Shown here piece by piece: positions 8,627 to 41,712 of a DNA stretch of 64,000 nt (position 1 is its first letter; each line of letters opens with the position of its first letter). The notes below the pieces were generated by a model. It was not told the origin of the DNA and searched no databases. It saw only the letters and a program-made list of their open reading frames with translations. Source of the DNA: an uncultured Clostridia bacterium (GTDB taxonomy: Bacteria > Bacillota > Clostridia > Christensenellales > CAG-138); contig CAMPAN010000002.1 of NCBI GenBank assembly GCA_946631895.1, forward strand, positions 14,946-78,945. The letters run 5' to 3'. Made by a program: the position numbers and the translations under genes.

Positions 8627-9796
8627 ATGCGGTGTCTAAAATGTGGAGGACAATTAGATCATCATAAATGCTCAGTCTGCGGATTTGACACGGTCAAAGA
8701 CACGGTACATTTTTTATCGGCACAGCAGGCGAAAACCATGTCGCATTTGATTGCTTCGCTTTGGGACGATGAAATACACAAATCAGATGTTAAGCATGAA
8801 ATCATCGACGCCATCGACGAAGAGAGGCGGCAACTGGAGGAAAGGAAAAAAGCTCTATTACAAAGGAAAAAAGCTCTATTACAAAGAAGAAAACAAATTG
8901 AAATGGAGATAGAAGCTCTCCAAAACTCAATGCAGCAAGATCAATCATCTGCTAATTATTCATCCCATTTCATTCGAAAAGAGTTCGATGTAGAGTTGGC
9001 AATTATCGATTGGTTCAAAGATTCGACGGAGTATCCTGATGCAACTGAAATAGATCGTTTTTATCAATCATTATCATTTGCAGACGGTGCAGTCCCGTGG
9101 CGCTCCCGGTCCAGAATCAAGGAACTGGTATACCGCTATATCGAGATGAACATGGAAGTGAATACTCCGAAGGATGTTTCAAAGATTCTAAGATCTGATA
9201 ACAAGGAGCCTGTCACTTTTTTCATGCCGATCGACAGTTTCTTTTCTGATGTGAAACAGAGAACAATCGCTTGTGGAAAAGTGTTGCTCGGCGGCATCGC
9301 TGCCGGTAAACCGGTTGACATCATTCTTAAAGACGGAGATCGCTTAAAATCATTTATTACGCAGATTAATCACGGTCTTTATTCATATAATGGTCGTTCC
9401 TTTGCAGAAAAAGGAGATGTTGTAGGATTAACTCTACAAAATATCAAACAACTCAAATCGACAGAAGCACAGGCTATCGTGAATCCCAATGCCAATGCCT
9501 TGCACATGGAGTTTTCGGGTTCGTTGAATCTCTTGAAAAAAGAAGAGGGCGGTCGAAATCTTCCTGTATTTACAGGATATAAACCTTTTCTCCGAGGTCT
9601 TAACAAGGACACTCGAGGCCTTATTACCTTTGCAAAAAGGGATTCAAAACTTGATATGTTACGACCGGGCAATAAAGCTATTGTACATGTCGAATTGGAT
9701 GAACCGATCGCGATTGTTCCAGGAATGGTGTTTTCCGTTCATGAGGACGACTCGGTTACAATAGCAAAACTAACGGTAACATCGACAGAGGATTGA
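8627..9796 (+). CDS. Zinc ribbon - coiled coil - EF-Tu domain II/III homolog (no G domain)
   Basis: GAAGGAG RBS. The N-terminus is CLKCGG..x7..CSVCGFD. A coiled segment contains RKKALLQ twice. The C-terminal ~195 aa (nt ~9209-9796) align by eye with EF-Tu domains II-III. Examples: LLKKEEGGRNLPVFTGYKPFL...TRGLITF vs [32 protein letters not shown], and MLRPGNKAIVHVELDEPIAIVPGMVFSV vs [28 protein letters not shown]. No GHVDHGKT or other GTPase motifs are present. Confidence 0.8.
   Translation: MRCLKCGGQLDHHKCSVCGFDTVKDTVHFLSAQQAKTMSHLIASLWDDEIHKSDVKHEIIDAIDEERRQLEERKKALLQRKKALLQRRKQIEMEIEALQNSMQQDQSSANYSSHFIRKEFDVELAIIDWFKDSTEYPDATEIDRFYQSLSFADGAVPWRSRSRIKELVYRYIEMNMEVNTPKDVSKILRSDNKEPVTFFMPIDSFFSDVKQRTIACGKVLLGGIAAGKPVDIILKDGDRLKSFITQINHGLYSYNGRSFAEKGDVVGLTLQNIKQLKSTEAQAIVNPNANALHMEFSGSLNLLKKEEGGRNLPVFTGYKPFLRGLNKDTRGLITFAKRDSKLDMLRPGNKAIVHVELDEPIAIVPGMVFSVHEDDSVTIAKLTVTSTED
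8843..8884 (+). repeat. Perfect 21-bp in-frame tandem duplication (AGGAAAAAAGCTCTATTACAA x2)
   Basis: Read directly: 8843-8863 is identical to 8864-8884. It encodes RKKALLQ-RKKALLQ inside the coiled segment. Confidence 0.9.
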
Positions 9797-9828
9797 CCGA
9801 TGACAGTCCGATAAAATAGGAGGTTTCA

Positions 9829-12339
9829 ATGCCCAACTATACCACAAGATTGTATAATGAAATCGTTGATCATGCGGAGGAACTATATGATTTCTTCTCC
9901 GGAGATTACATGAATGGCTTTGAAAACCGCTTGTTGGATTGCGGGGCTGATCGTATCGAAATCGGCCCCATGCAATTCGTTCGTATTCTTCAATACAGAA
10001 AAACAACGAATATCCGTAACGATCTGAAAACAATTCAAACAGCTATTTCCGCATGCCTTGGTTACTGTGCGCGAAACATGGCTGCGTTTGGATATTATCT
10101 GATATCGAAAGACGATGAGTTCCGTGTTTTTCTATCTGTAGAAGGAATTCCCGCCGATGGAGTCATCCGGTTGTTATCCGGGATGATTCCCGAAATCTCT
10201 TTTCGTACAGGATTTATACCTCCATCCGATATGAAGCGGCTATCCTCTTGCTCGGGCATTATCAGCGGCGATATTCACTGTACTGAACCCATCGCAAATA
10301 TGCTTTTTCAAGCGTACAACGGCAGGAATGGTATTCTTGGGGTTCTTGCTGTTCCTATGGCTCGCTCGGAAGCATCTTCATATACAGATGCTCTGAATGT
10401 GCTGCTTCGTCAAACAGAGGACTTACTGAGCGATGATATGGCTTATTCGTTTCAGTCCAGAAAAACGAATAAACGTAGTTACCGTTTTATTCCGGAACTA
10501 AATGCCAAACTGAAAGAAATGACGGAATACTATCGCAGTTCCGGGGAAGACTATTGGAAAACCTGTTTGTGGTTTTCTACAGAGGATAGGCAATCTCTCA
10601 ACACTATTGGCAACGCAATCTCCGGTATTCTAAACAGTGCGAATGACAGTTCGGACAAAGCCAGAGTATTCTTTACTACTGAAACCCCATTTCAACAAGG
10701 CCGTTTATTTCTCCCTGCTCCTCTATTCGGCGATCATAGATTTGAATATGAGGATGCCTTGTTGAAGCCGTCGCTGATTTCGTATGTTTCAAATACGCAT
10801 TTATCCAGTATTCTTCAGTTTCCATCCTCGCAGATCAACGGTTTCGATGTCATTGAGCTTACAAAGACCGAGAACAGTATTCATCTTTTTGACTTGAACC
10901 ACCCATCTTATCAGGATAACGGAATTGCTTTAGGTAGAGTTGCGGACAGTGGAATCGGCTATGCCCTCCCGTTGCAAGACCTCATGGAACACGTCTTAGT
11001 AACCGGCTCCACCGGTGCCGGAAAGACGAATACAGTCTTTACCCTCGTTCAAGGAGTTCATGCCTTCCATATCCCAGTTTTGATAATCGAGCCATCAAAA
11101 AAAGAGTATTGGCTGCTTGGAAGCATGCTCCAGGATCTAAAGGTGTATTCATTTGGAAAGGATGCGGATCTTTTACAGATCAATCCTTTGATTCCCGAAG
11201 AAGGCGTACTCATCGGGAATCATATCGACAGTCTTCTCTATGCGTTCTCCGGCGCATTTGAGATGGAGGAACCAACCCGTTTGGCTCTTGACGGCTTACT
11301 GAAATACACTTACATGAAATCGGGATGGACTTCTGGTGATATAGCCATTTTCTCGCGTAAGCCATTCCCACAGATAAAGGATCTTCTTCGGTTTCTGCCG
11401 GAATACTGCGAACAGAACCTCCCCTATGGAGAAGAAGTGAGGAATAATATTTACGGTTCTCTCGTTAACCGGCTTTCTTCAATCAATTCAGGAGTATTGG
11501 GAGAATCGATGAATACAGCTCATCCCATCACGGGGAAGGATCTCTGTTCCGGAACCGTTCTCATTGAACTTGATGATCTTTCACTTGAAACAAAGCCTTT
11601 TATCGCCATGCTCGTGATGATAAAGGCCGATCAATATCTTCGTCAGAAAAATGCGTCTCACCGTCTCAATAATGTGATCGTTCTGGAAGAGGCTCATAAT
11701 GTTTTTGCAAATGTGGCAAAGGACAAGCGACAAGAACCCCGAGATAAAGCAAGCCACTATTTCAGCAATATGCTTTCACAAATCAGAGGATATGGGGCAG
11801 GCATTATCATTGCCGATCAAGGTGCATCTCAGATCAATGATATGGCGGTTTCAAATACAAAGGTTAAAATCATTCATGGAATTGTTGATCAGGATGACAT
11901 GGATAGAGTTGCTTTTGCGCTTAACCTGACAGATATTCAGAAAAGAGTATTCCCCTCCTTACAAACAGGAGATGCTATTATTGGGATCAGAGCATCGAGA
12001 AACGTCAATCGGGTGCGAATAAACCAAACCCGTATTACACCGATTCACAATATCGCTTGTCTGTTTTGCAAACGGAAGCAGTTCTGTGTAAACTTTAACA
12101 AAGAAAACAGCTCTCCCATTCCACGCGTTTCTCTGACTGCACAGCATATTTTACAGTATCGTTTTGATCCCATGTCTCTGTCAAACGAGCTTCACATCGT
12201 TGCCAAACATATGGAATGGCCGCAAGGCAAAGACTTATGTCTGCTTGGTTTGCTCCTTTCCGACCGCAGTGTTTTCCTCGGTGAGCGAGAAAAGAGGCGG
12301 ATCATTCAAAGATACTTGCAGACATGTTCGGAGGATTAA
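9829..12339 (+). CDS. HerA/FtsK-clade P-loop ATPase with long N-terminal region
   Basis: AGGAGG RBS. Walker A is VTGSTGAGKTNT (nt 11005-11028). It is followed by LIIEPSKKEYW, a Walker B / EEAH-type motif VIVLEEAHNVF, and IIIADQGASQI. No TM segment is evident. Confidence 0.75.
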   Translation: MPNYTTRLYNEIVDHAEELYDFFSGDYMNGFENRLLDCGADRIEIGPMQFVRILQYRKTTNIRNDLKTIQTAISACLGYCARNMAAFGYYLISKDDEFRVFLSVEGIPADGVIRLLSGMIPEISFRTGFIPPSDMKRLSSCSGIISGDIHCTEPIANMLFQAYNGRNGILGVLAVPMARSEASSYTDALNVLLRQTEDLLSDDMAYSFQSRKTNKRSYRFIPELNAKLKEMTEYYRSSGEDYWKTCLWFSTEDRQSLNTIGNAISGILNSANDSSDKARVFFTTETPFQQGRLFLPAPLFGDHRFEYEDALLKPSLISYVSNTHLSSILQFPSSQINGFDVIELTKTENSIHLFDLNHPSYQDNGIALGRVADSGIGYALPLQDLMEHVLVTGSTGAGKTNTVFTLVQGVHAFHIPVLIIEPSKKEYWLLGSMLQDLKVYSFGKDADLLQINPLIPEEGVLIGNHIDSLLYAFSGAFEMEEPTRLALDGLLKYTYMKSGWTSGDIAIFSRKPFPQIKDLLRFLPEYCEQNLPYGEEVRNNIYGSLVNRLSSINSGVLGESMNTAHPITGKDLCSGTVLIELDDLSLETKPFIAMLVMIKADQYLRQKNASHRLNNVIVLEEAHNVFANVAKDKRQEPRDKASHYFSNMLSQIRGYGAGIIIADQGASQINDMAVSNTKVKIIHGIVDQDDMDRVAFALNLTDIQKRVFPSLQTGDAIIGIRASRNVNRVRINQTRITPIHNIACLFCKRKQFCVNFNKENSSPIPRVSLTAQHILQYRFDPMSLSNELHIVAKHMEWPQGKDLCLLGLLLSDRSVFLGEREKRRIIQRYLQTCSED

Positions 12340-12340
12340 C

Positions 12341-13201
12341 ATGTTGGATACAAGCCTATTCAGAGAAACCGCTTCATCGGAGACTCGCGAACAAAACGGT
12401 ATCGCTTGTGTTGAAATAAACCGACCGCAGAGAGAAGTTGACGACAAAAAGGAGATTTCTTCTGTGGAGGTCGCTCAAAAGGCATATGATGAAACAATAA
12501 AAGAAATCAATATCGAATGCGAAGGTATTATTCCAAAGGAACAAAAAACACGAATCAATCTCGAAAGAGAAGTCCATAAGCCGATCATCATGACTTCCGA
12601 AGAATACAGCGAACGTTTCCCGGAAGCTGATCCGAATGTATTGGGGCATTATGAAGCAAACGGGCAAGTGTATATGAAAGACGGCTCTCCCGAAACGCTT
12701 TCGCACGTTGCAACGCATGAAGCCATGCATTTGACATCATTTAAGGAAAGTAATCAGAATACTTACCGATCCGGGCTGCGCGAAGCAACATATAACGAGA
12801 ACGGCATGCGAGAGGAGCATAATCGTGCCATAAACGAAGGAGCAACCGAGCTATATGCCCTTCGGGAAATGCAGCGTCGAAACGAAGGATCTTCCATCGA
12901 AGCAATCTCTGCATATCCGGAAGCGCAAAGGGCAGCATCGGAGCTACGGGACATGGTTGGAGAAGAAAGAATGCGTGAAGCATACTTCGGCGGCAACCTC
13001 GAACAATTGAAAGCGGAGGTAATCCGCTTGAATTATGGAGATGAAACAGCGTGGGATCGTTTCTCTAAAAATGTTGACATTCTTGAGTACGAGGGAGACG
13101 AACAAAAGATACGGAATGCTCAGATTGAGTTAACCTTGCAAAATGCTATAATGTATTCATTTAAAGAATCTGAAGCATGGACAAGAAGTGACAACTTATA
13201 A
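12341..13201 (+). CDS. Putative HExxH zinc metallopeptidase
   Basis: The ATG lies 1 nt after the HerA-like stop, with a GGAGGA RBS. The motif is HVATHEAMHLTSF (HExxH). The listed 12164 start would overlap the upstream gene by 176 nt. Confidence 0.55.
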   Translation: MLDTSLFRETASSETREQNGIACVEINRPQREVDDKKEISSVEVAQKAYDETIKEINIECEGIIPKEQKTRINLEREVHKPIIMTSEEYSERFPEADPNVLGHYEANGQVYMKDGSPETLSHVATHEAMHLTSFKESNQNTYRSGLREATYNENGMREEHNRAINEGATELYALREMQRRNEGSSIEAISAYPEAQRAASELRDMVGEERMREAYFGGNLEQLKAEVIRLNYGDETAWDRFSKNVDILEYEGDEQKIRNAQIELTLQNAIMYSFKESEAWTRSDNL

Positions 13202-13221
13202 TATGCACGGGGGAACCAGTT

Positions 13222-13716
13222 GTGATAATTGAATCGTTTATAAAAGAGATCGTATTCAATGCAATAGAGAACTGTAATTATGATCCAACCACCGTCTCGA
13301 ACGGTATCTGTTCTTATGCACAACGTCATGGTTTTCATGAACTGAAAACAAAATTCACGGACAGTGTTATCAAAAGAGTAATTGTCAACAGTTTAACTCC
13401 CATCATGAGTATGAAGCCGGACGCCATTACGCTTTATTTTTCAAATTATTCGCTGATTGAGAGGCTTTCTTTACTGAACAACCAATCTTTGATTATTGCC
13501 AACGCTAAACGCGCAGGAAAGTATGTCAATGACGATGAGATTTTAAAAATCGAAGAAGCATTTGATGACTGTATGAAAACGGTTTGCCAAGAACAAGGGC
13601 TCAGAGAATTGCTTGACATTCAGATATCAGAGATTATCCTCAACATCGACTATGCAAAAGGAGTATCATCTCATATGGGACAGAGATTGAATTCATTGGA
13701 AGGAGATTCTCATTGA
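13222..13716 (+). CDS. Hypothetical protein
   Basis: GTG start with a GGGGGA RBS. Its 4-nt overlap with the next gene suggests coupling. No motif recognised. Confidence 0.45.
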   Translation: MIIESFIKEIVFNAIENCNYDPTTVSNGICSYAQRHGFHELKTKFTDSVIKRVIVNSLTPIMSMKPDAITLYFSNYSLIERLSLLNNQSLIIANAKRAGKYVNDDEILKIEEAFDDCMKTVCQEQGLRELLDIQISEIILNIDYAKGVSSHMGQRLNSLEGDSH

Positions 13717-14330
13717 ATACAATCAGACTGCACGACATTTATATGCATACAACAGCGCTGGGACCGGGTACAAGAATCGCTGTTTGGCTGCAAGGATGCA
13801 AGCGCTGCTGTAAAGGCTGTATGTCACCGAAGTCAAGACCTTTGGATGGCGGACGTATGGTCGATTTGGATGCGCTTATTGAAGAGATTTGTTCCACACA
13901 TGATGTGGAGGGGGTAACAATCAGCGGCGGCGAACCTTTTTTACAAGTGCAGGCTCTCTATCGTCTGCTGTCTGCCATAAGGAACCGCACGGAACTCGGA
14001 ATAATTATTTATACCGGAAATACCCTGTCTGAACTGTACGAAATGCATAATCCCATGATAGATGAGATTATTACCCATCTGTCTGACCTGATTATAGATG
14101 GCGAATACATAGATGACTTGAATGACGGAACCGCACTGAAAGGATCCAGCAATCAAAACGCAATCTTCATTACCGACAGATATTTGCCCTATAAATGGCT
14201 GTATGAAGAGAAAAGAAGAGATATAGAAATCAAAATTGAGAATGGAAGTTCGCTGCTTATTGGAGTTCCGGACAAAAGCACACTTGAAATGTGGAGGCGT
14301 ATCTCGGACCAAATGAAAGGCGAGGAGTAG
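13713..14330 (+). CDS. NrdG-like radical-SAM activating enzyme (4Fe-4S single-cluster type)
   Basis: TTG start with a GGAAGGAG RBS. GPGTRIAVWLQGCKRCCKGCMSP gives CX3CX2C in the context typical of glycyl-radical-enzyme activases. GGEPFLQ follows. No NrdD or other glycyl-radical enzyme is visible in the window. Confidence 0.7.
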   Translation: MNTIRLHDIYMHTTALGPGTRIAVWLQGCKRCCKGCMSPKSRPLDGGRMVDLDALIEEICSTHDVEGVTISGGEPFLQVQALYRLLSAIRNRTELGIIIYTGNTLSELYEMHNPMIDEIITHLSDLIIDGEYIDDLNDGTALKGSSNQNAIFITDRYLPYKWLYEEKRRDIEIKIENGSSLLIGVPDKSTLEMWRRISDQMKGEE

Positions 14331-16150: not shown

Positions 16151-18967
16151 ATGAATTGTCCGAAATGCGGAGCCAAGCTGATTGACTATATCTGTGGTAA
16201 GTGCGGCTTTGATCTTAAGCGTGATACGATCAGCTGCTGGGGAGCAGGCAGCAAAATAAGCATAGATGCGTTGACAAGGTATATTCAAAAAAAGGATGCC
16301 GAAGCAAGCAAAGCCTCAAAAGACTCGCTTGATTACCCTCTGCTCATAAATCAAATGATAGTGGATCCTAAACCCGTGCGGCAATCTTTGGATAATTCGA
16401 TTGATACAAGCAAAAAGACAAAGCAGGACGAAGATGATTTATATGTCAGAATAGGAGAAAGAATCTCTAAAGAACTATCAAAAGAGGAATTAGAAGAATT
16501 CGACTCAATTAAAAATACAACAGAAGCAGGGAAATGGTTAGCAATACATGCGCCAAATTATATATCCATCGTAGAAGAAGAAAGAGCCAAGTTTCTTCAA
16601 GAAAAGGATGTCAGGCAAACTGCTGCACAACGACATGCTGCTGAAATGGCAGATCGATACGCAGCCAATGCTGTAATGGAACAAATCCATAGTATAGGCA
16701 GAGTAGATTCGTCTAAGGAGTGCGGTCAGCGCATTCAAGACGCACGTGATGCCTTTAAAAGGCTTACACCTTACCGACAGGAGATGGTGACAAATAGAAA
16801 TCTGTTGGTAGATGCAGAAGCAAGATACGCTTTCTTGTTACAAACCGAACAGAAGAAGAAAGAACGTCGTGCAAAAATAGAATACGTTCAAAAAGACAAA
16901 AATCGCAATACAAATAACGCCAAGCGCACAAGAAGGATCATTTACTTTGCATTTGCTGCATTGTTGCTATGTGTCGGCGTGTTTATATTATGCAAATCGG
17001 TGTTTTTTTCAGATATGGAAAAGCCACTGTCTTCGTCTTTCTTCGCATCCGCGAAACAAGGTGACGTGTTCACGCTTGGAAAATATGAGCAAGACAACAA
17101 TCATGACAACGGAGCAGAAGATATTGAATGGGTTGTCGTGGACGTGGACGCTGATAAAGGAGTTGTTCTTGCTATGAGCAAGTATGTTCTCGATTGCAAA
17201 CCTTATGCGGAAAACGAGTATATCAATACGGATTGGGAACATTGTTCGTTACGCGAATGGTTAAATGGAGAGTTCTATGAGTCGTCATTTTCAGATGATG
17301 ATAAACAGTGGATTCGAACAGTTTGTCATCAAAATAGAGATGGCATGGGATATGAAACGCCGGGAGGTTATAATACGGTGGATCATGTGTTTCTCCTCGA
17401 TCGTGCAGATCTCCGAACATTATGTGATGATGTTTCATACCAGCTTGGAGGGTTAAATGAAAGCTACAGCGATGTGAGACGGAAAGAGATTGACTCCTCG
17501 TTGCCATTACTTGCTGACTATTTAGGAGAATTATCATACATAAAAAACATAATAGATGTTAGACAGGAAGAGCTCCTTTCATCATCAAATATCTTAACTG
17601 ACGTAACTGATGACTGTTTTGTTGTAGACTTCTTTTCAACGTCATCTGTTTCTGAAAGGCTCAAAGCTACTTTTACACCATACGCAAAAGAGGCATATAT
17701 CCGACAGCAAATGATTTCAAAGGGCTCTGCGGAGACAGAAGAGAAGATTCGAGAGGATTACGCCGAACTTGAAAAAGAATATGGAGAATTAGCTGCGGAC
17801 TGGTGGCTGAGCAGTCCTGGGAAATGGTTGGATCAGACCATGATCGTTTCTTGGCCCGGTATAGCGACTAGCATGCCTTCTCGTGACACCTCAAGGGGTG
17901 TGCGCCCAGTTATAGCCATAGCTTCTATTACATCGGACAGAAATGAAGAGAATGCTCAGAACGAAGAACAAAACGAAAATGTATCTGATTTGCTTTCATT
18001 CCCCGAAGTAAGCGAATCTTCTAAAGATGATTATTCTTTTTCACACGATAACTACGTTGTACAGTGGGTAGAAGATGATCAGAAAGCCCTTTTCATTCTG
18101 AAAGATGGAAGTGTCAGAGTTGTTAGTTATGATACTGACTATTTATCATCCGTATCTGATTGGAAAAACATTAAGAAAGTCGCCATCGGTTCTGGCGTGG
18201 TCGTTGGTATAACAAACGATGGAAAGATTCAGTGTTATGCAGAACATGAGCTTTCTTATGACCTTTCTACATTGATGAGTTTGACACATATATGCGATGT
18301 TTGTATATGTGATGCAATCAATCCCCAAAATCCTGATTATAGCGGACTGATTATTTGTTTTTCAGATGAAGGAACAGTATATAGAGCATATGCGGGAGGA
18401 TATAATGCCTATTGGAATGACAGCTGTAAAGCAATATGTGCATCTGGAAACCAATTCTTCATTCTCCACGATGACGGAACTGTCAGCGGGAGAGATTGGG
18501 AAAGCAATCCGCTTGTAGAAGAATGGAACGATATCGTCCAAATTGCATGCGGCGATACTTTCGTCGCGGGTCTAAAAAGCGACGGAACGGTTGTTGTTGA
18601 CGGTAGTTGTGTATTTCCTGCTCTTACTGGGGTTACGGTGTTGAAAGGGGATGGGACATTTGGCAGAATAGACGAATTATTTGAGGTTTCAAACTGGAAA
18701 GATATCATCTCCATCTCTGCCGGGTCGCATCATTTGGTCGGTCTTAAGAGTGATGGAACCGTTGTTGCTGTCGGATTGAACTACTATGGTCAATGTGACA
18801 CTTTTGAAGAACGTCTTTGGACAGATATCGTTAGGATTGAGGCCAGCGGAAATATGACGGTCGGTTTTGCTTCTGATGGTAGTGTCGTGATAGCAGGCAA
18901 GAACATTGTTGATAACGTTATTGATCTTAAGGGGAAATGGAATTTCTATAGGTACTATTCAAGGTAA
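16151..18967 (+). CDS. Zinc ribbon - TM - DUF6273-like - RCC1-repeat surface protein
   Basis: The N-terminus is CPKCGAKLIDYICGKCGFD. A TM helix follows (IIYFAFAALLLCVGVFILC). Next is GKYEQDN...IEWVVVD...WEHCSLREWLNGEFY, which as I recall is typical of the Firmicute DUF6273 family. The C-terminus has repeated (V/L)(A/V)GLKSDGTVV and YYGQCD motifs typical of RCC1-like beta-propeller blades. Confidence 0.7.
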   Translation: MNCPKCGAKLIDYICGKCGFDLKRDTISCWGAGSKISIDALTRYIQKKDAEASKASKDSLDYPLLINQMIVDPKPVRQSLDNSIDTSKKTKQDEDDLYVRIGERISKELSKEELEEFDSIKNTTEAGKWLAIHAPNYISIVEEERAKFLQEKDVRQTAAQRHAAEMADRYAANAVMEQIHSIGRVDSSKECGQRIQDARDAFKRLTPYRQEMVTNRNLLVDAEARYAFLLQTEQKKKERRAKIEYVQKDKNRNTNNAKRTRRIIYFAFAALLLCVGVFILCKSVFFSDMEKPLSSSFFASAKQGDVFTLGKYEQDNNHDNGAEDIEWVVVDVDADKGVVLAMSKYVLDCKPYAENEYINTDWEHCSLREWLNGEFYESSFSDDDKQWIRTVCHQNRDGMGYETPGGYNTVDHVFLLDRADLRTLCDDVSYQLGGLNESYSDVRRKEIDSSLPLLADYLGELSYIKNIIDVRQEELLSSSNILTDVTDDCFVVDFFSTSSVSERLKATFTPYAKEAYIRQQMISKGSAETEEKIREDYAELEKEYGELAADWWLSSPGKWLDQTMIVSWPGIATSMPSRDTSRGVRPVIAIASITSDRNEENAQNEEQNENVSDLLSFPEVSESSKDDYSFSHDNYVVQWVEDDQKALFILKDGSVRVVSYDTDYLSSVSDWKNIKKVAIGSGVVVGITNDGKIQCYAEHELSYDLSTLMSLTHICDVCICDAINPQNPDYSGLIICFSDEGTVYRAYAGGYNAYWNDSCKAICASGNQFFILHDDGTVSGRDWESNPLVEEWNDIVQIACGDTFVAGLKSDGTVVVDGSCVFPALTGVTVLKGDGTFGRIDELFEVSNWKDIISISAGSHHLVGLKSDGTVVAVGLNYYGQCDTFEERLWTDIVRIEASGNMTVGFASDGSVVIAGKNIVDNVIDLKGKWNFYRYYSR

Positions 18968-21702: not shown

Positions 21703-22878
21703 ATGCAAACCGAAGAAGAACTGCTGACACAGTATACGCATTCAGCGGAGGAGTTTCCGGTCCTTGCCGAGCAGACGCACAAGGTGCTTCGCAACGGTAA
21801 AATCGTTAACGAGAGGATCAACATCAACGAAAACATCATGCACTATCTGCAGGATACTGCACAGCTGATATCGGTGATCGACGGCCGATTGGGCTCCGGC
21901 GTTCCGTATGACCATGTCATTTACTTGGACAAATCGGCAAGACCGGTTTCGTGGCTCGTCAATCTGTTCTGGAACGACTTTGCCGAAAAAGACAAAGCCG
22001 GTGTTCCTGTCAAGCGACCCCGACACTCCTATATCAATATCGACAGGGCGCCGTGGTTCAGATACGTCGGCGTCAATGTGGACGACGACGGCAGGCAAAA
22101 GGACAACGGCGAGCTTGCCACCTACATCGATTTCAGGAACAATATTCAGAATCTGTCGAAGAGACATCTCGCCGAAATCAGGGCGCTGTATATCCCCGGA
22201 GGGATCGAGGAGGAAAGCGATGACTGGGTGATGCGTCAACCGACCGTCCTTGATGCAAAGCGTGTGCTGATCGTGGATGAAGTCTCCAGAACAGGCTCGA
22301 CGCTGGATATCGCCAAGCATCTGTTCCGGCTTGCTATCCCGGATGCAGCCGTGATTGACGGCTCCTATTTTTGGAATCCGGGCGAATCGTCGCTCAAAAT
22401 CGGCGAGGAGTTTGCGCTGACGAGCCTGCCTGTTTGGTACGATCCGACCACCCTGACCGGTCGGGGAATCGGCGCTCCCGACCCGTATTACTATAGAAAG
22501 CAATATGAAAAATACTTGACGCAGGATAACGGTTCCCATCCTATAGATTTTCGGAAGCTGCGGACCCATGCCTTCTCCGCCTCGGTTTTCAGCGCACCGC
22601 TCTTGGATGACAACGGCGAAGTCATCGACTTGGCGGTCGAGGGCAAAACAAGAAAGCTGTGCAAGGATCTAAGGCGGTTATATGATGCGTATCAAACCGG
22701 GCGTATCTTTTTCACACCTCCTATGAAATGGTTCGGTTTCGATGATTTCAATGCGATGATTACGAATCAGGGCGTTATGCTTTTACCATTGGGCGCTTCG
22801 GAAAAGGAACGAGAAAGGATTCTGAAATCGCCGTTGTTCTATTTGAATTTTGTCACAAAGTTGAAGAGTATAAACTGA
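21703..22878 (+). CDS. Phosphoribosyltransferase (PRTase)-domain protein
   Basis: The second in-frame ATG has a GGGAGG RBS 10 nt upstream. The PRPP-loop-like motif is RVLIVDEVSRTGSTLDIA. Confidence 0.6.
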   Translation: MQTEEELLTQYTHSAEEFPVLAEQTHKVLRNGKIVNERININENIMHYLQDTAQLISVIDGRLGSGVPYDHVIYLDKSARPVSWLVNLFWNDFAEKDKAGVPVKRPRHSYINIDRAPWFRYVGVNVDDDGRQKDNGELATYIDFRNNIQNLSKRHLAEIRALYIPGGIEEESDDWVMRQPTVLDAKRVLIVDEVSRTGSTLDIAKHLFRLAIPDAAVIDGSYFWNPGESSLKIGEEFALTSLPVWYDPTTLTGRGIGAPDPYYYRKQYEKYLTQDNGSHPIDFRKLRTHAFSASVFSAPLLDDNGEVIDLAVEGKTRKLCKDLRRLYDAYQTGRIFFTPPMKWFGFDDFNAMITNQGVMLLPLGASEKERERILKSPLFYLNFVTKLKSIN

Positions 22879-23094
22879 ATAACTTTTACAGGAAACGGAT
22901 GTGGTTTTTCAATATAATACAGGCGCAAAACCGGTTATTTGCACCAAACCTTATGATATAACCCGTGTTAACTGGACACAAAGTGGACACAGTTTGTATT
23001 TTTCATATGGATTTAATGGATTGTTATGTCCATATGTAGTATCAAAATGAATTGAATATAACAAGATATTGTGGTTTATAACCAAAAAGAGCAA

Positions 23095-23117
23095 TTCGAT
23101 TCCGGGTGGCGCCTCCA
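23095..23117 (+). other. tRNA 3'-end fragment (T-loop, T-stem, acceptor, U73, CCA); att-like island boundary
   Basis: TTCGATT-CCGGG-TGGCGCC-T-CCA parses as T-loop, 3' T-stem, 3' acceptor strand, discriminator U and CCA, resembling bacterial tRNA-Cys ends. The complementary 5' T-stem and 5' acceptor (GGCGCCA) are absent from the preceding 80 nt, so this is not a gene. Confidence 0.45.
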
Positions 23118-23193
23118 AAACAATAGCACCCCAAAGCGGGTGCTTTTGTTTTGATGCCGGTACCCCCACAATCGAAGCGGCGCTTCAGCGCCG
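23109..23193 (+). repeat. Copy 1 of a degenerate ~85-bp direct repeat
   Basis: The unit is GCGCCTCC..AGCACCCC-loop-GGGTGCT..TTTGATGC..TAC.CCC.CAATCGAA.CGGCGC. By eye it is ~75% identical to 23255..23337. Confidence 0.45.
23125..23153 (+). terminator. Rho-independent terminator directly after the tRNA-end fragment
   Basis: AGCACCC (23125-23131) / GGGTGCT (23138-23144) stem followed by TTTTGTTTTG. Confidence 0.55.
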
Positions 23194-23254
23194 GTTCGAT
23201 GAGGGTCGATTGGGGGGCTTCAGAGCCGAATCGTGACCGAGCCGAAAGGCGCAA

Positions 23255-23337
23255 GCGCCTCCTCAATAAGCACCCCTTACGGGTGCTGTTCTGTTTGATG
23301 CTGATACTCCCTCAATCGAATCGGCGCGCCGGCGCTT
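23255..23337 (+). repeat. Copy 2 of the ~85-bp direct repeat (second hairpin 23269-23287)
   Basis: GCGCCTCCTCAATAAGCACCCCTTACGGGTGCTGTTCTGTTTGATGCTGATACTCCCTCAATCGAATCGGCGC. Confidence 0.45.
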
Positions 23338-23422
23338 CCCGGCAGCAGCAGACAGGAGTACCTCGAGAGCATCGTCAACCAGGTGCTGTTCGGATAAATG
23401 ACGGGATAGAACGCATAGAAGC

Positions 23423-23460
23423 AAAAAGCCGATTCGGTCAACATAGACCGATCGGCTTTT
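23423..23460 (-). terminator. Terminator of the histidine-kinase operon
   Basis: AAAAGCCGAT(T)CGG ... CCGATCGGCTTTT hairpin with a T-run on the minus strand, ~35 nt past the kinase stop. Confidence 0.5.
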
Positions 23461-23495
23461 CTGTTTATGAGGGATTCAGATCGTCCCGGTTTTGC

Positions 23496-32191: not shown

Positions 32192-32266
32192 ATCCTTACA
32201 GTATGTTACGGCGAACGGCGATTGCAGGGCAGGAAACGTCCGTGCCGCCGGAAAGGATGTACATCC

Positions 32267-33277
32267 ATGGAAAAAGAGTCCGGATCGAAAAAAATCGCGC
32301 TGCTACGCATTCTGCAGATTTTGCAGGAGGAGACCGACGAAGCGCATCCGCTGACGCAGGAACAGATCGGGGAGATCCTGCGCGCAAAGTACGGCATCGT
32401 ACTGGAGCGCAAGGCGATCGCCGACAATCTGCGTCTGCTCGAGAAAGCGGGATACGACGTCGTATCGGAGCGAAGAAGAGGCAGTTATTTTGAACACGAA
32501 TTCGACTATACCGAGCTTCCCGTGCTGATCGACGCCGTGATGAACAGCCGGTATATCGCCAAAGGATACGCGGAAGATCTGGTCAAAAAGCTCAAAAGGC
32601 TGTCCAGTAAGCATTTTCACACTGCGGCAGGCCATATCGTGTCCGTCGGGGATAAGCACAGGACCGGCAATAAGGAAGTGTTTCTGAACCTGGAGCTGCT
32701 CGACGAGGCGATCGAAAACAAACGGCAGGTCGAGTTTTCCTATCGACAGCTGGGGTTCGGTCTGAAGCCGAAGAGCAGGTCCCGGCGCGTCAGTCCGTAC
32801 CGGCTGATCCTGTTTCAGGGGCAATACTACGTGCTGGGAAAAGAACACCGGAAATACGGTTACCAACCGGGCGTACGCGCCTTTCAGCTGGATCATATCA
32901 CAAAGGTCGCAATCCTCGAACAAAACACCGATTCGATCGAACCGGAAGATAAGGACAGTCTGAACGGCATCGAGATGCTGTCAATGTTTTACCCGGCTGC
33001 ACCGCTGCGCAAGGAGAAGCCCGAGCGGATCGAGCTGCTTTTGCGGGGGCCCGATGCGGTCGAGGCGTTTGTCGAGCAGTTCGGCGACTGTACCATGACC
33101 AGGCTGGACGATCCGAACCGATACATGGTAAAGGTCGAGGTCGAGGCGAATCCGACTGCGGTGGAGCAATGGGTGCTGCTGCATCTTTTCTACGCAAGGA
33201 TCCTTGCTCCGAGTTATCTGAAGGAATACTTCAATTATACATTACAGAGCGGGCTGATCCCGTTCCTGAAAGAATAA
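32267..33277 (+). CDS. HTH + WYL-domain transcriptional regulator
   Basis: N-terminal wHTH-like KIALLRILQILQEETDEAHPLTQEQIGEIL. The central WYL-like strand motif is VSPYRLILFQGQYYVLG. Confidence 0.65.
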   Translation: MEKESGSKKIALLRILQILQEETDEAHPLTQEQIGEILRAKYGIVLERKAIADNLRLLEKAGYDVVSERRRGSYFEHEFDYTELPVLIDAVMNSRYIAKGYAEDLVKKLKRLSSKHFHTAAGHIVSVGDKHRTGNKEVFLNLELLDEAIENKRQVEFSYRQLGFGLKPKSRSRRVSPYRLILFQGQYYVLGKEHRKYGYQPGVRAFQLDHITKVAILEQNTDSIEPEDKDSLNGIEMLSMFYPAAPLRKEKPERIELLLRGPDAVEAFVEQFGDCTMTRLDDPNRYMVKVEVEANPTAVEQWVLLHLFYARILAPSYLKEYFNYTLQSGLIPFLKE

Positions 33278-33577: not shown

Positions 33578-34063
33578 ATGAAGAGGATATTTTTGGATAT
33601 GGACGGCGTGCTTTGCGAGTACCGCGCCGACGCAACGCTGGAGGACATGGAGCGCGACGGGTATTTTTTGGCGCTTCGTCCCAGAACGGACATGGTGGAC
33701 GCCGTGCGGAGTCTTGTCAAGAGTGGTAATTATGAGGTGTTCGTGCTGTCCGCCGTGCTTCCGCAGAAGGCGGAGGCGTCCGTGAACGAAAAGAACGACT
33801 GGCTCGACCGGTACCTTCCCGAGATCGATGCGGCGCACCGGCTGTTTCCGCTGTGCGGCACGAACAAGGCGGACGCGGTTCCGGATTTCTGCACGGACGA
33901 CATTCTGTTTGACGATCACTCCCCGAACCTCGAACGCTGGATCCAAAGCGGCGGCAGAGGCGTCAAGATCCTGAACGAGATCAACGGCGTTACGGGCAGC
34001 TTTCAAAAGGGTCCGCGCCTTCGGGTGAAAAGCCTCAACGACCTGCTGCTTGCGGTTACGTAA
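33578..34063 (+). CDS. HAD-superfamily 5'(3')-deoxyribonucleotidase-like (NT5C family)
   Basis: IFLDMDGVLCEY (DxDG nucleophile motif) and a late ILFDDHSPN motif. The size (~160 aa) is typical of the family. Confidence 0.6.
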   Translation: MKRIFLDMDGVLCEYRADATLEDMERDGYFLALRPRTDMVDAVRSLVKSGNYEVFVLSAVLPQKAEASVNEKNDWLDRYLPEIDAAHRLFPLCGTNKADAVPDFCTDDILFDDHSPNLERWIQSGGRGVKILNEINGVTGSFQKGPRLRVKSLNDLLLAVT

Positions 34064-34079
34064 AGAAAGGAGACGAAAG

Positions 34080-36089
34080 ATGCAGTTTTTCAGATATGAA
34101 GGATTTTTCCCGGAGGACGCCGAACAGCAGTACAGCGCCCGCAGTATGCGTGATCTTCTCAAAAAGCAGGCGATGAAGATCGACGCGTTTCTGCAGCCGA
34201 TCCGCCGCGAGGCGTTTCTTTGCGTCGGGGGTGTCGACGAGGACGGCGTCACGGTCGTTGCGCTTCTCAAAACGGGCGACGACGTGCAGCGGCTGATCGG
34301 GACGTATCTCGAAATGCTTGAATTCCCCGTTGAGAACGAACGCCTGGAGGAGATCACGCTGCACGTGGCTAAGGGCTTGCTCCAGAACGCGGCGCGCAGC
34401 GGATTCATCGAGGACGACGAGGACGTCCTCGAGCGGTTCGAGCTGCACCGGCTGAACGCCCGCTTCGGCAAGGGCATTCAGTTTTCCGAAAAGATGATCG
34501 AGCCGCGGATGAAGGACGCGATCTATCGGGAGGCGCAGCGGTATCTGTCCAACGAGACGCTGCTGCCTGAGCTCGACCGCATCTATGCGGGAAAGAGCGA
34601 CTCCCCGGCGACCGGACATCCCGTGCATTATCTCATCCGGACCGATTCCGCCGCGACCCGCAGGGGGCTCTGCGAGCTTCTGACGGAAGCGCTGTATGCA
34701 AATAAGCGCATTGCAAGCAGACGCTATTGCGCGATCGGTCTGAAGCCCGACGGCGATGTCTATCCGCCCGCGTACGATTCGCTGTACAAAAGCTGCATCG
34801 GCGGCGCGCTGGTCGTGCAGTTTGCCGGCAACGAGAATCCGGAGGACGAATACGCGTCCGAAAACCGGGAGATGCTCACGCTGCTTGCCAAGGAGATGAA
34901 GCGCTACCGGAACGAGGTGCTGACGATCTTCTGCCTCGAACGCGCATGCAATACGTCCAGGGCGATCCTTTATGAAAACCTCGGCACGGTCAGCATGATC
35001 GAGCTTGCGGAGGAGCTGGTCGACGCGTCGCGCGCGACGGAGCATCTCATAATGCTGGCGGCGGAAAACAACGTCAAGGCGGACGACGCCCTGCTTTCGA
35101 AAATCAAACCGGACAAGGGCTATCTTGCGCCGGAACTAAGCGAACTGTTTTCGGAATGGTACAACGCGCTTTTGAAAACCGACGTCTATCCGCAGTACCG
35201 CGAAATCGCGAGCGCCAAGGTCGAGGCGGTGAAGGAAGCGCCGAGGGGCTCGGCGTATGACGAGCTCACGGAGATGATCGGGCTTTCGGAAGCGAAACGC
35301 ATCATCAAAACGGCGATCGATTACCGAAAAGCGCAGAAGCTGTTTTCGGAAAAGGGCATGAAGGCGGAGCAGCTGTCCATGCACATGGTCTTTACGGGCA
35401 ACCCCGGCACGGCAAAGACGACGGTCGCGCGGCTCTTTGCGCGGATCATGCGGGAAAACGATCTGCTTGCGAAAGGTCACATCATCGAACTCGGGCGCGG
35501 GGATCTGGTCGGCAAATACGTCGGCTGGACCGCGCCGACGATCCAGAAGAGATTTCGCGAGGCAAAGGGCGGCGTGCTCTTCATCGACGAAGCGTATTCG
35601 CTCGTGGACGACCGGTCCGGCTCCTACGGGGACGAGGCGATCAACACGATCGTGCAGGAGATGGAGAATCACCGCGACGAGGTGGTCGTTATCTTTGCGG
35701 GATACCCCGACAAGATGGAGTGGTTTCTCAATAAAAACCCCGGTCTGCGCTCCCGCATCGCGTTTCACGTGCCGTTTGCGGATTACAGCACCGAGGAGCT
35801 TCAAAGGATCACGGCGCTGATCGCAAAAAAGAAGGGACTGACGCTGACCGACGGGGCGAAGGAAAAGCTCGAAGCCGTCTTCGACGCCGCGCGCACGGAA
35901 CCCGATTTCGGCAACGGCAGGTTCGTCCGCACCTTGATGGAGAAGGCGAAGATGGCGCAGGCGGCGCGTCTGCTTTCCGCGGGCTACGACGCGGTGAACG
36001 AATCGGATATTGCGACGATCACGGAAGCGGATATCATACAGATCGCGCCGAAGCCGAAAGCGGCGCCGAAGCGTGCGATCGGGTTCTGA
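34080..36089 (+). CDS. SpoVK/CbbX-type AAA+ ATPase with ~400-aa N-terminal extension
   Basis: ATG with an AAGGAG RBS. Walker A is FTGNPGTAKTTVARL and Walker B is GGVLFIDEAYSL. Also present: VIFAGYPDKM, NPGLRSRI (sensor-2 region) and FGNGRFVR. Confidence 0.8.
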   Translation: MQFFRYEGFFPEDAEQQYSARSMRDLLKKQAMKIDAFLQPIRREAFLCVGGVDEDGVTVVALLKTGDDVQRLIGTYLEMLEFPVENERLEEITLHVAKGLLQNAARSGFIEDDEDVLERFELHRLNARFGKGIQFSEKMIEPRMKDAIYREAQRYLSNETLLPELDRIYAGKSDSPATGHPVHYLIRTDSAATRRGLCELLTEALYANKRIASRRYCAIGLKPDGDVYPPAYDSLYKSCIGGALVVQFAGNENPEDEYASENREMLTLLAKEMKRYRNEVLTIFCLERACNTSRAILYENLGTVSMIELAEELVDASRATEHLIMLAAENNVKADDALLSKIKPDKGYLAPELSELFSEWYNALLKTDVYPQYREIASAKVEAVKEAPRGSAYDELTEMIGLSEAKRIIKTAIDYRKAQKLFSEKGMKAEQLSMHMVFTGNPGTAKTTVARLFARIMRENDLLAKGHIIELGRGDLVGKYVGWTAPTIQKRFREAKGGVLFIDEAYSLVDDRSGSYGDEAINTIVQEMENHRDEVVVIFAGYPDKMEWFLNKNPGLRSRIAFHVPFADYSTEELQRITALIAKKKGLTLTDGAKEKLEAVFDAARTEPDFGNGRFVRTLMEKAKMAQAARLLSAGYDAVNESDIATITEADIIQIAPKPKAAPKRAIGF

Positions 36090-37824: not shown

Positions 37825-37847
37825 TCTTTCTGAAGGAGGAAACCGTT

Positions 37848-38597: not shown

Positions 38598-38636
38598 AGC
38601 GGCGGCCGCGCTTCTGCCGCAGCATCTTACGTACGA

Positions 38637-38713: not shown

Positions 38714-38746
38714 CCGTACGAAAATCAAAAAAAGGAGATGAGTTGC

Positions 38747-39592: not shown

Positions 39593-39612
39593 CCAATCGA
39601 AAGGAGATCCAT

Positions 39613-41712
39613 ATGGAGAAAGAACTGTCTGTCAACAGAAACAACGCGGCGCAGAAGGTCCGCGACCGCTGCAAAGCGGCGCTCGAGGAGCGGTACGGCA
39701 GCCGCCCGGACGAACGGATCATCGAACGGCTGATCGAGGAGGATCGCGAGATCGAATTTGCGGAGGACGGCGAGAACCGGTGGCGGATGCTTCTGTCTGC
39801 GGCGAACGTTGCTGACGCGTGCCGCGCGCACGGCGTCCCGGTCTTTGCGCGGGGAAACCTCGGCGCTTCCTTCTTCGCGTATCTGCTCGGCGTTTCGGAA
39901 TGCAATCCGCTGCCGCCGCACACCGTTTGCCCAGTCTGCAAGACCGTGGAATTTGTCGATCCGAACGAGTTCCCGTCCGGCTTTGATCTGATGCGCTGCG
40001 GCGCCGCGCAGAAGACGTGCCCGACCTGCGGCGCGTCGCTTCTCGGCGACGGCTGCAACGTCCCCGCCGCGTCGCTGTTTGAGACCTGCAGGGGACCGCT
40101 GATCCCGGAGCTGGACGTGCCGGCGGAGGCGCTGCCGCTGATCCGCGAACGGACCGGCATGCCGCTGCATACGCTTCCGCTCACCATGCGCCCGAACAAA
40201 GCGCTGTCTGTGCTTTGGCGGATGCATGACGCATTAAAAGAGCCGTCAAAGCCCTTTGTTCCGGACGAGCAGGATGTGCGCCTTTTTGTCGGCGAGGGGA
40301 TGAACGGGTCTTTCGGGATCGGAAAGAGCCTGTTTCCGAAGGAGCTTCCGCCCACCGCGACGCCGGAAACCTTTTCCGAGCTTCTGACGCTCTATGGTCT
40401 TGTGTACGGCACGGGCACGATGGAGTTGAACAAGGAAAGGCTGTCCGATCCGGAGCATCCGCTTTCCGGCGTGATCGCATTCCGCGAGGATCTGCAGGAC
40501 CGGTTCGTGTCGCACGGCATGCCGTACCCGGCGGCGTACTTCCTTGCGGAGTTCATCGGAAAGGGAAAGGCGAAGAAGCATCCGGATTCCGACGCGCTTC
40601 GGTCGCTCTCTGAGCACGGTTATACGGCGAAAGCGGTCGAAGAACTGAAAACGATCGGGCGACTGTTCCCGAAGGCGCACGCGGTCAACCATCTGCTGCT
40701 GATGCTGCGCCTGCAGCGCGCGCGGGAGACGCATCCGGTCGAGTATTTCGCCGCGCAGCTGACGGTCCGTGCCCCAAAGGAGCCGGACGGCGCGTGCTTT
40801 ACGACGGAGCGCAAGCAGCTTGCCGATGCGATCGATTCCTGCGGCGACCCGGACGAAAAGGCGTATCTCGAAGCCGTGCTCGGCGCGCGTGACCGCGAGA
40901 TCGAATTCCTGCCCGCCGTTTCAGGACTGTCCGATCCCGCCGCGTTCCTGCCGGGCAAGGGCACGATCCGTCTGCCGCTGCGGCTATCCGGCGCGATCCG
41001 GATCGAGCGTCCGTTTTTCCGCCAGATCGCAGAGTTTACATGTCTGCGCCCGGACCCGGAGGAGCGGCAGACGCCGGCGTTTCCGATGGACGCGCTGTTT
41101 GAGACGCTGTCCGAAGGGCTGCATCTGATCGGCGGCAGACCCGGCATGGGTAAATCGACGCTGCTTCAGCACCTTGCCGCCGAGCTTGCCCGAAGCGGAA
41201 CGCCCGTGTATTACTACTCGCAGGAGCGCCTGAACGTGCGCTGCGCAAGGCGTTTGATGGCGCTGCTTCCGGAGGAGCTTGAGAACGTGCCGGTTTATCT
41301 TGCGGACAGTACTGCGGACCCGGACCTCTTTGCGCTGCTTCGCGCGGCGCGGCGCGAGATTTCAACCGGCGTGCTGATTCTCGACGGGCTGGAGCTCATG
41401 GTCGAAAACCGCAGCCCGTACCCGGCGGCAAATCCTTACAGCGAGGTTCATCTCCGCGAAGCCGCCGCCGCGACGGCGCTTGCGGAATTTGCAAAGCAGT
41501 GTCATCTGCCGGTCCTTGCCGCCGTGCCGCTCTCGCGCGACACCGAGCACCGCACGGACCACCGCCCCAAGCTTTCGGACGTGCGCTATCACCGCCGCTT
41601 TGTCGACGAAGCGGACACGGTCGTGCTGCTCTGGCGGGACAGTTATTACAGCGACGGCGGAGACCCTGCCATGAAATACCGGATCGTAAAGCGCAAAGAT
41701 TCACACGCCTGA
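39613..41712 (+). CDS. Degenerate PolC-type PHP-domain segment fused to DnaB-C/RecA-like ATPase
   Basis: The N-terminal ~430 aa align by eye with the PolC PHP region. Matches: ARGNLGASFFAYLLGVSECNPLPPHTVCPVCKTVEF...SGFDL...CPTCG..LLGDGCNVP vs [44 protein letters not shown].CG....DGHDIP; FIGKGKAKK vs VRKGKG; and LFPKAHAVNHLLLM vs MFPKAHAAAY. The C-terminus has IGGRPGMGKSTLL (Walker A), LILDGLELM, and the DnaB-like RPKLSDVRYHRRFVDEADTVVLLWRDSYY. Confidence 0.7.
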   Translation: MEKELSVNRNNAAQKVRDRCKAALEERYGSRPDERIIERLIEEDREIEFAEDGENRWRMLLSAANVADACRAHGVPVFARGNLGASFFAYLLGVSECNPLPPHTVCPVCKTVEFVDPNEFPSGFDLMRCGAAQKTCPTCGASLLGDGCNVPAASLFETCRGPLIPELDVPAEALPLIRERTGMPLHTLPLTMRPNKALSVLWRMHDALKEPSKPFVPDEQDVRLFVGEGMNGSFGIGKSLFPKELPPTATPETFSELLTLYGLVYGTGTMELNKERLSDPEHPLSGVIAFREDLQDRFVSHGMPYPAAYFLAEFIGKGKAKKHPDSDALRSLSEHGYTAKAVEELKTIGRLFPKAHAVNHLLLMLRLQRARETHPVEYFAAQLTVRAPKEPDGACFTTERKQLADAIDSCGDPDEKAYLEAVLGARDREIEFLPAVSGLSDPAAFLPGKGTIRLPLRLSGAIRIERPFFRQIAEFTCLRPDPEERQTPAFPMDALFETLSEGLHLIGGRPGMGKSTLLQHLAAELARSGTPVYYYSQERLNVRCARRLMALLPEELENVPVYLADSTADPDLFALLRAARREISTGVLILDGLELMVENRSPYPAANPYSEVHLREAAAATALAEFAKQCHLPVLAAVPLSRDTEHRTDHRPKLSDVRYHRRFVDEADTVVLLWRDSYYSDGGDPAMKYRIVKRKDSHA

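Follow-up and report, generated by a model that had tools for sequence, protein, structure and literature searches.

Putative non-catalytic derivatives of EF-Tu and PolC in two accessory gene clusters of an uncultured Clostridia bacterium

Why should a bacterium keep pieces of the translation factor EF-Tu and of the DNA polymerase PolC which lack the catalytic parts of both machines? The question is raised by a 64-kb stretch of DNA (here the window; G000:C2:14946-78945) in the metagenome-assembled genome (MAG) of an uncultured Clostridia bacterium, a 63%-complete assembly of 1.73 Mb in 158 contigs. In a preliminary description of this stretch it was claimed that two unrelated loci each encode a catalytically stripped fragment of essential information-processing machinery, and that the organism uses this strategy repeatedly. 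The two proteins, P0001 and P0002 (Table 1), were compared with EF-Tu and PolC by sequence, profile and fold, and both homology assignments held at all three levels. P0001 and P0002 are intact and belong to small, previously undescribed protein families. Their conservation and divergence argue for old, maintained, non-catalytic derivatives which were recruited into NTPase-rich accessory clusters.

P0001 carries domains II and III (D2 and D3) of EF-Tu. The Pfam family GTP_EFTU_D3 (PF03143) matches residues 293-386 above the cut-off (7e-12), and a phmmer search against the PDB aligned residues ~196-375 to both domains of EF-Tu from many species (best E 9e-20); overall, the match spans residues ~196-386. 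The AlphaFold2 (AF2) model, with a predicted local distance difference test score (pLDDT) of 82, has a beta-rich C-terminal half, and its best Foldseek matches are all EF-Tu (E 1e-19). The Pfam model of D2 stays below threshold on P0001, D2 being nonetheless covered by the phmmer alignment and the fold. Residues 1-195 consist of a zinc ribbon, a helix of ~55 residues and three more helices. A G domain is missing: there is no match to PF00009 in the Pfam scan or the scan of the own genome and no G1-G5 motif such as GHVDHGKT, DxPGH or NKxD in the translation. Hence the claimed EF-Tu piece without the GTPase exists, and so does its fusion to a zinc ribbon and a probable coiled coil, which can be read from the translation and the AF2 helices. 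P0001 is a real EF-Tu derivative without the catalytic capacity of its parent, to which its identity is ~31-33%. Near-identical copies are present in independent assemblies (P0030, L052, L053).

P0001 is not an isolated case. An exhaustive HMMER search of 1.84 billion representatives revealed proteins that score far above true EF-Tu, namely P0123 (42-44% identical to P0001, E 8e-54) and P0124-P0134, and D2 and D3 without a G domain were found in all ten of these relatives that were scanned with Pfam. A word-indexed search with P0001 returned the near-identical copies and otherwise only true EF-Tu (~31% identity). In a quick maximum-likelihood tree of D2/D3 (IQ-TREE) P0001 and ten relatives form clade A, 11 representatives separate from true EF-Tu with a support of 95 in the Shimodaira-Hasegawa-like approximate likelihood ratio test (SH-aLRT) and a stem of 0.51; a second deep clade without G domain comprises 15 representatives. 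The hallmark of clade A, which P0001 shares, is a VNxGA-type signature in D2/D3, usually after a CxxC..CxxCGF zinc ribbon. The parts preceding D2/D3 vary from the zinc ribbon alone to a zinc ribbon with a bL12 C-terminal domain (P0126), with a bL12 C-terminal domain and SEC-C (P0128) or with MORN repeats (P0133). A profile search of the 5.8-billion set gave nearly exclusively true EF-Tu, which also dominated a class-level genome search with the clade-A profile (E 1e-60), and a profile scan of viral contigs yielded no relatives of the clade.

Beyond clade A, the combination of zinc ribbon, D2 and D3 recurs in P0154 and P0155. Also outside clade A are P0139, which reads PASTA+(D2D3)x2+bL12x2 and has a lipoprotein-like N-terminus, and P0147, which reads bL12x2+(D2D3)x2. 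In P0139, P0147 and P0151 the D2/D3 repeats are joined to bL12 C-terminal, PASTA or SdrD_B domains, and lipoprotein- or signal-like N-termini are found. The sequences suggest that some of the EF-Tu modules without G domain are extracellular.

How much of the parent has remained was counted at 63 positions of D2/D3 which are at least 95% invariant over 94 true EF-Tu sequences. Of these, 32 have survived in clade A and 29 in P0001; the losses include the VERGQ, DVTG and FAIREGG motifs, and several of the replaced D3 positions are presumably T-stem contacts in the EF-Tu/tRNA complex. The D2 motif EDVF..GRGT of clade A reads DSFF..KQRT in P0001. Since about half of the invariant positions are replaced, an old repurposed binding module fits better than a close mimic of EF-Tu.

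The second protein, P0002, had been described as a PHP segment of PolC without the polymerase, fused to a DnaB-C ATPase. The latter part was right: Pfam finds DnaB_C (3.6e-22), and residues 490-699 of the AF2 model (pLDDT 85) superimpose on DnaB, G40P and T7 gp4 with Z ~22 (VIA-align). The ATPase has intact Walker motifs and DnaB-type motifs, and the DnaB N-terminal domain gave no Pfam match (PF00772). The former part has to be corrected, the piece being an internally deleted polymerase core. A phmmer search against the PDB matched two blocks of P0002 to PolC of Geobacillus and to a further PolC (E 9e-32) and also gave DnaB, and the Pfam family DNA_pol3_alpha lies below threshold at residues 15-101. 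Residues 6-454 of the model superimpose on residues 823-1378 of Geobacillus PolC, where the polymerase has its palm, zinc finger and fingers, with Z 29.5-32 over 430 residues and a root-mean-square deviation of 3.3 A (VIA-align). A PHP segment is ruled out because this structural alignment starts only after the PHP domain; PF02811 was not matched in the Pfam scan either.

The comparison with PolC of the same genome (contig C3, 1546 aa) by BLAST shows what was lost. Residues 53-169 and 234-456 of P0002 correspond to residues 954-1065 and 1251-1482 of PolC, and the ~185 residues in between (1066-1250), which follow the first palm segment, are replaced by ~65 residues. We assign to the deleted block the remaining part of the palm, third catalytic aspartate included, and the thumb. 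In addition, the catalytic PDIDL has become PELDV, that is ExD for DxD. P0002 has retained FPKAHA, the four-cysteine zinc finger and, in the form ARGNLGAS, an RGxxGxS-like motif. A recent duplication of host genes is ruled out by the identity of only 26-31% to the own PolC. Thus, P0002 is, judged by its alignments, a real PolC derivative without the catalytic capacity of its parent.

Seven further clusters share the fused architecture (38-82% identical to P0002, 639-723 aa). With eight clusters among 5.8 billion, P0002 included, the family is rare and patchy. Its invariant residues are the cysteines of the zinc finger, D168, the Walker A residues G507, G508, P510, G513, K514 and T516, and D591; the first position of the DxD motif is glutamate in seven of the eight members. 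The conservation of these residues argues against a pseudogene. Searches with tblastn in 50,697 phage and 72,556 plasmid records revealed no fused homologue, just genuine PolC or DnaB, and viral contigs gave two weak matches and nothing stronger. In a non-exhaustive literature search no paper was found that describes either PolC-core::DnaB_C fusions or fusions of EF-Tu D2/D3 without G domain.

The partly preserved surfaces of both proteins could also be explained by dominant-negative effectors directed against translation and replication. Once released or activated, P0001 would contest the access of EF-Tu to EF-Ts, aminoacyl-tRNA or the ribosome, P0002 would compete with PolC at primer ends or in the replisome, and in either case growth would be arrested (abortive infection). 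Clade A retains the EDVF..GRGT motif of D2, P0002 has the zinc finger, the RGxxGxS-like motif and FPKAHA, and D2/D3 of several relatives are fused to the bL12 C-terminal domain. This domain binds translational GTPases. Furthermore, Lit and type IV Thoeris are known to attack EF-Tu (PMC13581612). However, the identity to the parents is just ~25-35%, the D3 motifs are systematically replaced in clade A, the D2 pocket motif is gone from P0001, and EF-Tu is so abundant that a stoichiometric competition is implausible. Such effectors are unlikely, and a decoy or dominant-negative action of P0001 and P0002 may at most be listed as a candidate role. The low identity rather indicates old recruited modules than recent copies.

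Short, zinc finger-bearing polymerases of the PolC type with an intact PDIDLN motif occur in GTDB genomes in three forms: DnaB_C+PHP+Pol as N-terminal fusion (L017, 1055 aa), PHP+Pol (L018, 736 aa) and a 787-aa polymerase followed by a separate DnaB_C gene (L008). Polymerase and DnaB_C are therefore paired in three arrangements, as C-terminal fusion in the P0002 family, as N-terminal fusion in L017 and as adjacent genes in L008. In another reading, P0002 could sit in a WYL-controlled module for replication, repair or damage tolerance and use its dead core as a scaffold, and the P0001 operon could serve protein quality control, secretion or a mobile element, neither of them being immune. WYL regulators control DNA-damage regulons in some bacteria. 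Besides the three relatives with intact DxD, the neighbours of L017, among them a DUF2779 protein and a metallophosphoesterase, RNase_T-type exonucleases in two of the polymerase neighbourhoods, and the Hsp70-like protein, AAA+ protease and HerA/FtsK ATPase of the P0001 operon are in line with this explanation. Nevertheless, the Pfam-scanned genes of the P0002 locus include no active polymerase, nuclease, integrase or relaxase, and the locus is flanked by an ABC-exporter cluster. The missing fused homologues in phage and plasmid records, the weak matches on viral contigs and the rare and patchy distribution, which is typical of accessory conflict genes, also speak against repair or replication. 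We regard this explanation as rather improbable.

Several other polymerase-related genes came up in the same searches. L009, L010, L012 and L013 were rejected as family members, as their polymerases are without the PolC zinc finger and resemble ordinary DnaE-type enzymes. One of these loci, L010:4751-19526 from a Clostridia MAG, contains a WYL protein, a DnaB_C-only gene, a 1339-aa DnaE-like polymerase, an ADP-ribosylglycohydrolase, a SpoVK-type AAA+ protein and HerA/FtsK; its AAA+ protein is 43% identical to the AAA+ protein of the WYL locus in the window. In a family of ~377-aa proteins (L017:5026-6159, L018:7045-8178, L019:1472-2608, L020:3417-4553) the similarity to Pol III alpha is confined to the initial ~90-130 residues of the palm; these truncated palm-derived proteins occur in genomes of Acutalibacteraceae, Roseburia and Agathobacter.

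Table 1 Features of the P0001 operon and of the WYL locus with P0002. Positions refer to the window; identities refer to the orthologues in syntenic metagenome contigs (aa amino acids, NBD nucleotide-binding domain)
Feature	Position	Strand	Basis and remarks	Identity to orthologue
AAA+::trypsin giant, C-terminus	2-985	+	first operon gene; full protein 1807 aa, G000:C2:10507-15930	48% (L050)
Double-zinc-ribbon coiled-coil protein				74%
Two coiled-coil paralogues				63%, 60%
Hsp70/actin-fold-like protein, 568 aa	4555-6261	+	starts IGIDFGTTYS; weak DnaK NBD match, E 0.025	43% (L050)
331-aa protein				31%
Two zinc-ribbon-tagged proteins, 177 aa and 250 aa	7259-8600	+	directly 5' of P0001	30% (177 aa), 63% (250 aa)
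P0001, zinc ribbon, coiled coil and EF-Tu domains II/III, 389 aa	8627-9796	+	Pfam, phmmer, AF2, Foldseek	42% (P0123, synteny comparison, same slot)
P0001 N-terminal zinc ribbon, CxxC..CxxCGF	8627-8695	+	translation; same in P0123, P0124, P0128, P0130, P0133	
P0001 long helix, probably coiled coil, residues 52-105	8780-8941	+	AF2 secondary structure	
P0001 EF-Tu domain II-like beta-barrel, degenerate, residues ~196-290	9212-9496	+	phmmer, fold	
P0001 EF-Tu domain III, residues 293-386	9503-9784	+	Pfam PF03143, 7e-12	
HerA/FtsK-type ATPase	9829-12339	+	Pfam DUF87/FtsK; PADLOC HerA 9e-13; immediately 3' of P0001	65% (L050, same position)
164-aa protein				48%
Radical-SAM activase-like small protein (Fer4_12)	13713-14330	+	Pfam 5e-28; distal operon end	68% (L050)
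WYL-domain regulator	32222-33277	+	Pfam WYL 7e-12; PADLOC WYL 2.5e-22; 5' of P0002 locus, same strand	
AAA+ ATPase (AAA and AAA_lid_6; SpoVK/CbbX type)	34050-36089	+	Pfam; ~400-aa unassigned N-terminus	
Four tandem paralogues, 252/252/249/293 aa	36263-39592	+	no match in Pfam or PADLOC	
P0002, reduced PolC core and DnaB-C/RecA-fold ATPase, 699 aa	39613-41712	+	Pfam, phmmer, AF2, VIA-align, BLAST	
P0002 PolC-derived core, residues 6-454	39628-40974	+	Geobacillus PolC 823-1378 minus ~125 residues	
P0002 four-cysteine PolC-type zinc finger, C106, C109, C136, C139	39928-40029	+	family-invariant	
P0002 E166-L167-D168 replacing catalytic D-x-D	40108-40116	+	alignment	
P0002 DnaB-C/RecA-fold ATPase, residues 490-699	41080-41709	+	Pfam 3.6e-22; Z ~22	

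The operon of ~13 genes around P0001 recurs on two metagenome contigs (L050 and L051), both of which contain P0123, and synteny spans the whole operon (window 1-14330). Because it occupies the same slot in the syntenic operons, the EF-Tu-like gene is a fixed component, and its identity to the orthologue places it among the faster-evolving ones. The first gene encodes a giant protein with ~1000 aa of unassigned sequence, two AAA+ modules of the SpoVK/CbbX type (AAA_lid_6) and a C-terminal trypsin-like protease; its AAA+ part resembles IetA models (PADLOC 3e-13). Zinc ribbons of one and the same type open the genes starting at 7259, 7848, 8627 and 16151. The last of these (16151-18967) encodes a 938-aa protein in which the P0001-type N-terminal tag is combined with DUF6273 and RCC1 repeats. 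Between 14633 and 16037 a sigma-70 region-2-like protein is followed by a CxxC-motif protein, possibly a sigma/anti-sigma pair. In L050 an unrelated gene of 293 aa stands in place of the gene at 12341-13201.

In the WYL locus P0002 is preceded by an AAA+ protein and an array of four paralogues. With regard to defence operons under WYL control (BrxR/CapW type), the WYL gene 5' of the locus on the same strand is a candidate regulator. The neighbourhood of AAA+ proteins or other NTPases and of paralogue arrays, which the preliminary description had pointed out, is therefore present. The four paralogues gave no match in Pfam or PADLOC, and a search of the protein atlas with paralogue 1 returned nothing. 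Their sole outside relative, found with a hidden Markov model of the paralogues, is L018:4440-5501, which has a WYL-protein-like N-terminus and lies in a locus that also holds the PolC-type polymerase.

The description of the two loci as unrelated has to be qualified, since they are not fully independent: the only paralogue of the AAA+ protein of the WYL locus within the assembly is the AAA+::trypsin giant of the P0001 operon (39% identity, E 8e-39). When the proteins of the MAG were compared with one another by BLAST for partial paralogues of long proteins, ABC transporters and families of that kind made up most of the matches, with this AAA+ link and the protein par440 described below as the only additions. 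The two loci also differ in composition. The guanine-cytosine (GC) content is ~0.40-0.45 from position 1 to ~22,000 of the window, 0.52 at 22,001-24,000 and 0.53-0.63 further on, and it is intermediate (0.39-0.59) in the 15 kb 5' of the window. The P0001 gene is thus located in a compositionally foreign low-GC island, which extends over window positions 1 to ~22,900, and the P0002 gene in host-like DNA. tRNA genes are absent from the 64-kb window.

Whether the organism recruits such fragments repeatedly was addressed by scanning its genome with five Pfam models (PF03143, PF03144, PF00009, PF07733 and PF03796). True PolC, DnaE and DnaB (the latter on contig C34) were recovered, and tuf is absent from the incomplete MAG. 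A third fragment came to light in par440, a stand-alone PolC core of 440 aa (G000:C2:2273-3595, minus strand, ~11 kb 5' of the window) that is colinear with residues 914-1387 of the own PolC at 31% identity and has lost both DxD aspartates. The five-model scan of the 63%-complete MAG found no core-machinery fragments beyond P0001, P0002 and par440. The par440 gene and the genes of a BspA-type LRR_5 protein and a DUF3232 protein seem to form one operon on the minus strand, and an LRR_5 protein is likewise paired with PolC-like genes in L018.

All three fragments lie inside ~55 kb of a single 102-kb contig. This clustering is suggestive, although it was selected after the fact and with n=3 is beyond a statistical test. 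A repeated use of the strategy, as proposed at first, is not supported by three genes on one contig of such a MAG, a number with which no enrichment test is possible. Coincidence would mean that two or three unrelated leftovers were reused as generic beta-barrel or helical scaffolds on an accessory-rich contig, with no tie to the partners of their parents. The small number, the loss of about half of the invariant EF-Tu positions, the extracellular look of some EF-Tu proteins without G domain and the lack of further fragments in the rest of the assembly agree with it. On the other hand, fusions of D2/D3 with a second translation module, the bL12 C-terminal domain, recur in several architectures, couplings of the PolC core with the replication-type ATPase DnaB_C recur as well, and parent-specific motifs are retained. 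Coincidence is very unlikely.

For the preferred reading, that both proteins are recognition or scaffold modules in conflict systems, the chances are about even; the accessory clusters themselves are probably systems of conflict with phages or mobile elements. In P0001 the zinc ribbon would dock the double barrel onto the complex formed by the operon, and the EF-Tu barrels would be the ligand-recognition head. The ligand may be a component of translation or, in keeping with the contacts known for EF-Tu D2/D3, a phage capsid-type protein, and on binding it the head would signal to the ATPase and protease components of the operon. In P0002 the core would not polymerise but recognise DNA, a primer end or a nucleotide, as a head mounted on a DnaB-type hexameric motor; it may work with the upstream AAA+ protein and the paralogue array, probably under the WYL regulator.

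Several observations weigh against this reading. No component of the two loci matched a validated defence system in PADLOC-DB v2, which gave only generic similarity (HerA 9e-13, IetA-like AAA+ 3e-13, WYL and coiled-coil noise) and nothing for D2/D3 of P0001, the core of P0002, the four paralogues or par440. No fold could be assigned to the paralogue array or to the N-terminus of the AAA+ protein. P0001 is without the D2 motif that the rest of clade A keeps, and its ligand may differ. Lipoprotein-like N-termini and PASTA domains in some relatives hint at roles other than intracellular conflict. Finally, the relatives with intact DxD (L017, L018 and L008) may be no more than accessory polymerases, and P0002 may have branched off from this type and serve repair or replication.

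A bolder version of the conflict reading, which we consider doubtful, is that non-catalytic pieces of those host machines which phages target most (EF-Tu D2/D3, the bL12 C-terminal domain and the PolC core) are built as integrated baits into multi-NTPase immune complexes, and that a phage protein which otherwise seizes the host factor trips the system. If true, they would correspond in prokaryotes to the integrated decoys known from plant NLRs. Even without an immune role, P0001 and P0002 represent conserved, so far undescribed branches of two bacterial proteins that are among the best studied.

Among known systems, P0002 shares with PolC or Pol III alpha the N-terminal part of the palm, the four-cysteine zinc finger, the FPKAHA fingers and the C-terminal segment, but is without the N-terminal, OB, PHP and exonuclease domains, lacks the counterpart of residues 1066-1250 of the own PolC, has ExD in place of DxD, and ends in DnaB-C. 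With DnaB, G40P and T7 gp4 it shares the RecA-fold ATPase without having the DnaB N-terminal domain. An inactive polymerase as scaffold is known from the ImuA-ImuB-DnaE2 mutasome, in which a catalytically dead polymerase homologue likewise meets a RecA-fold protein. However, ImuB belongs to the Y-family and its cassette includes the active DnaE2, whereas no active polymerase was found in the P0002 locus. To our knowledge, the PolC-core::DnaB_C family would be the first case of a non-catalytic C-family core partnering a helicase-type motor. In type XI-like candidate retrons DnaB_C-only proteins accompany polymerase-fold reverse transcriptases (PMC13712802). These have in common with P0002 the DnaB_C beside a polymerase-fold protein in an accessory locus, but the partner in P0002 is a dead C-family polymerase core and not a reverse transcriptase.

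In the P0001 operon, the domain logic of the giant AAA+::trypsin protein is similar to that of IetA/IetS, but fused in one chain. P0001 itself agrees with EF-Tu in the fold of domains II/III and in recognisable sequence (E 1e-19 to 9e-20) and differs from it in the missing G domain, the fusion to zinc ribbon and coiled coil, and the change of half of the invariant positions. Single domains of the translation apparatus within larger proteins are also known from phages and mobile elements, where bL12 domains are embedded (Mizuno et al. 2019; PMC6375957); fusions of EF-Tu D2/D3 are not described there. Several EF-Tu relatives without G domain carry bL12, but P0001 does not, and no relative was found on viral contigs. 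A use of EF-Tu by other systems is known from Avs7, Lit/Gol and Q-beta replicase. In Avs7 the sensor is touched by D2/D3 of the host EF-Tu, which form a structural part of its capsid sensing; EF-Tu is furthermore bound by the T4 capsid and cleaved by Lit and type IV Thoeris (PMC13581612). The Avs7 contact and the capsid binding make D2/D3 an established protein-binding surface in phage conflicts. In contrast to these systems, D2/D3 of P0001 are encoded by the system and not borrowed from the host, and the operon has no STAND NTPase, Lit protease or Thoeris parts. The family makes it testable whether host-factor surfaces are hard-wired into bacterial immune complexes; if the bait model holds, the EF-Tu D2/D3 clade would carry in encoded form what Avs7 obtains by borrowing EF-Tu from the host.

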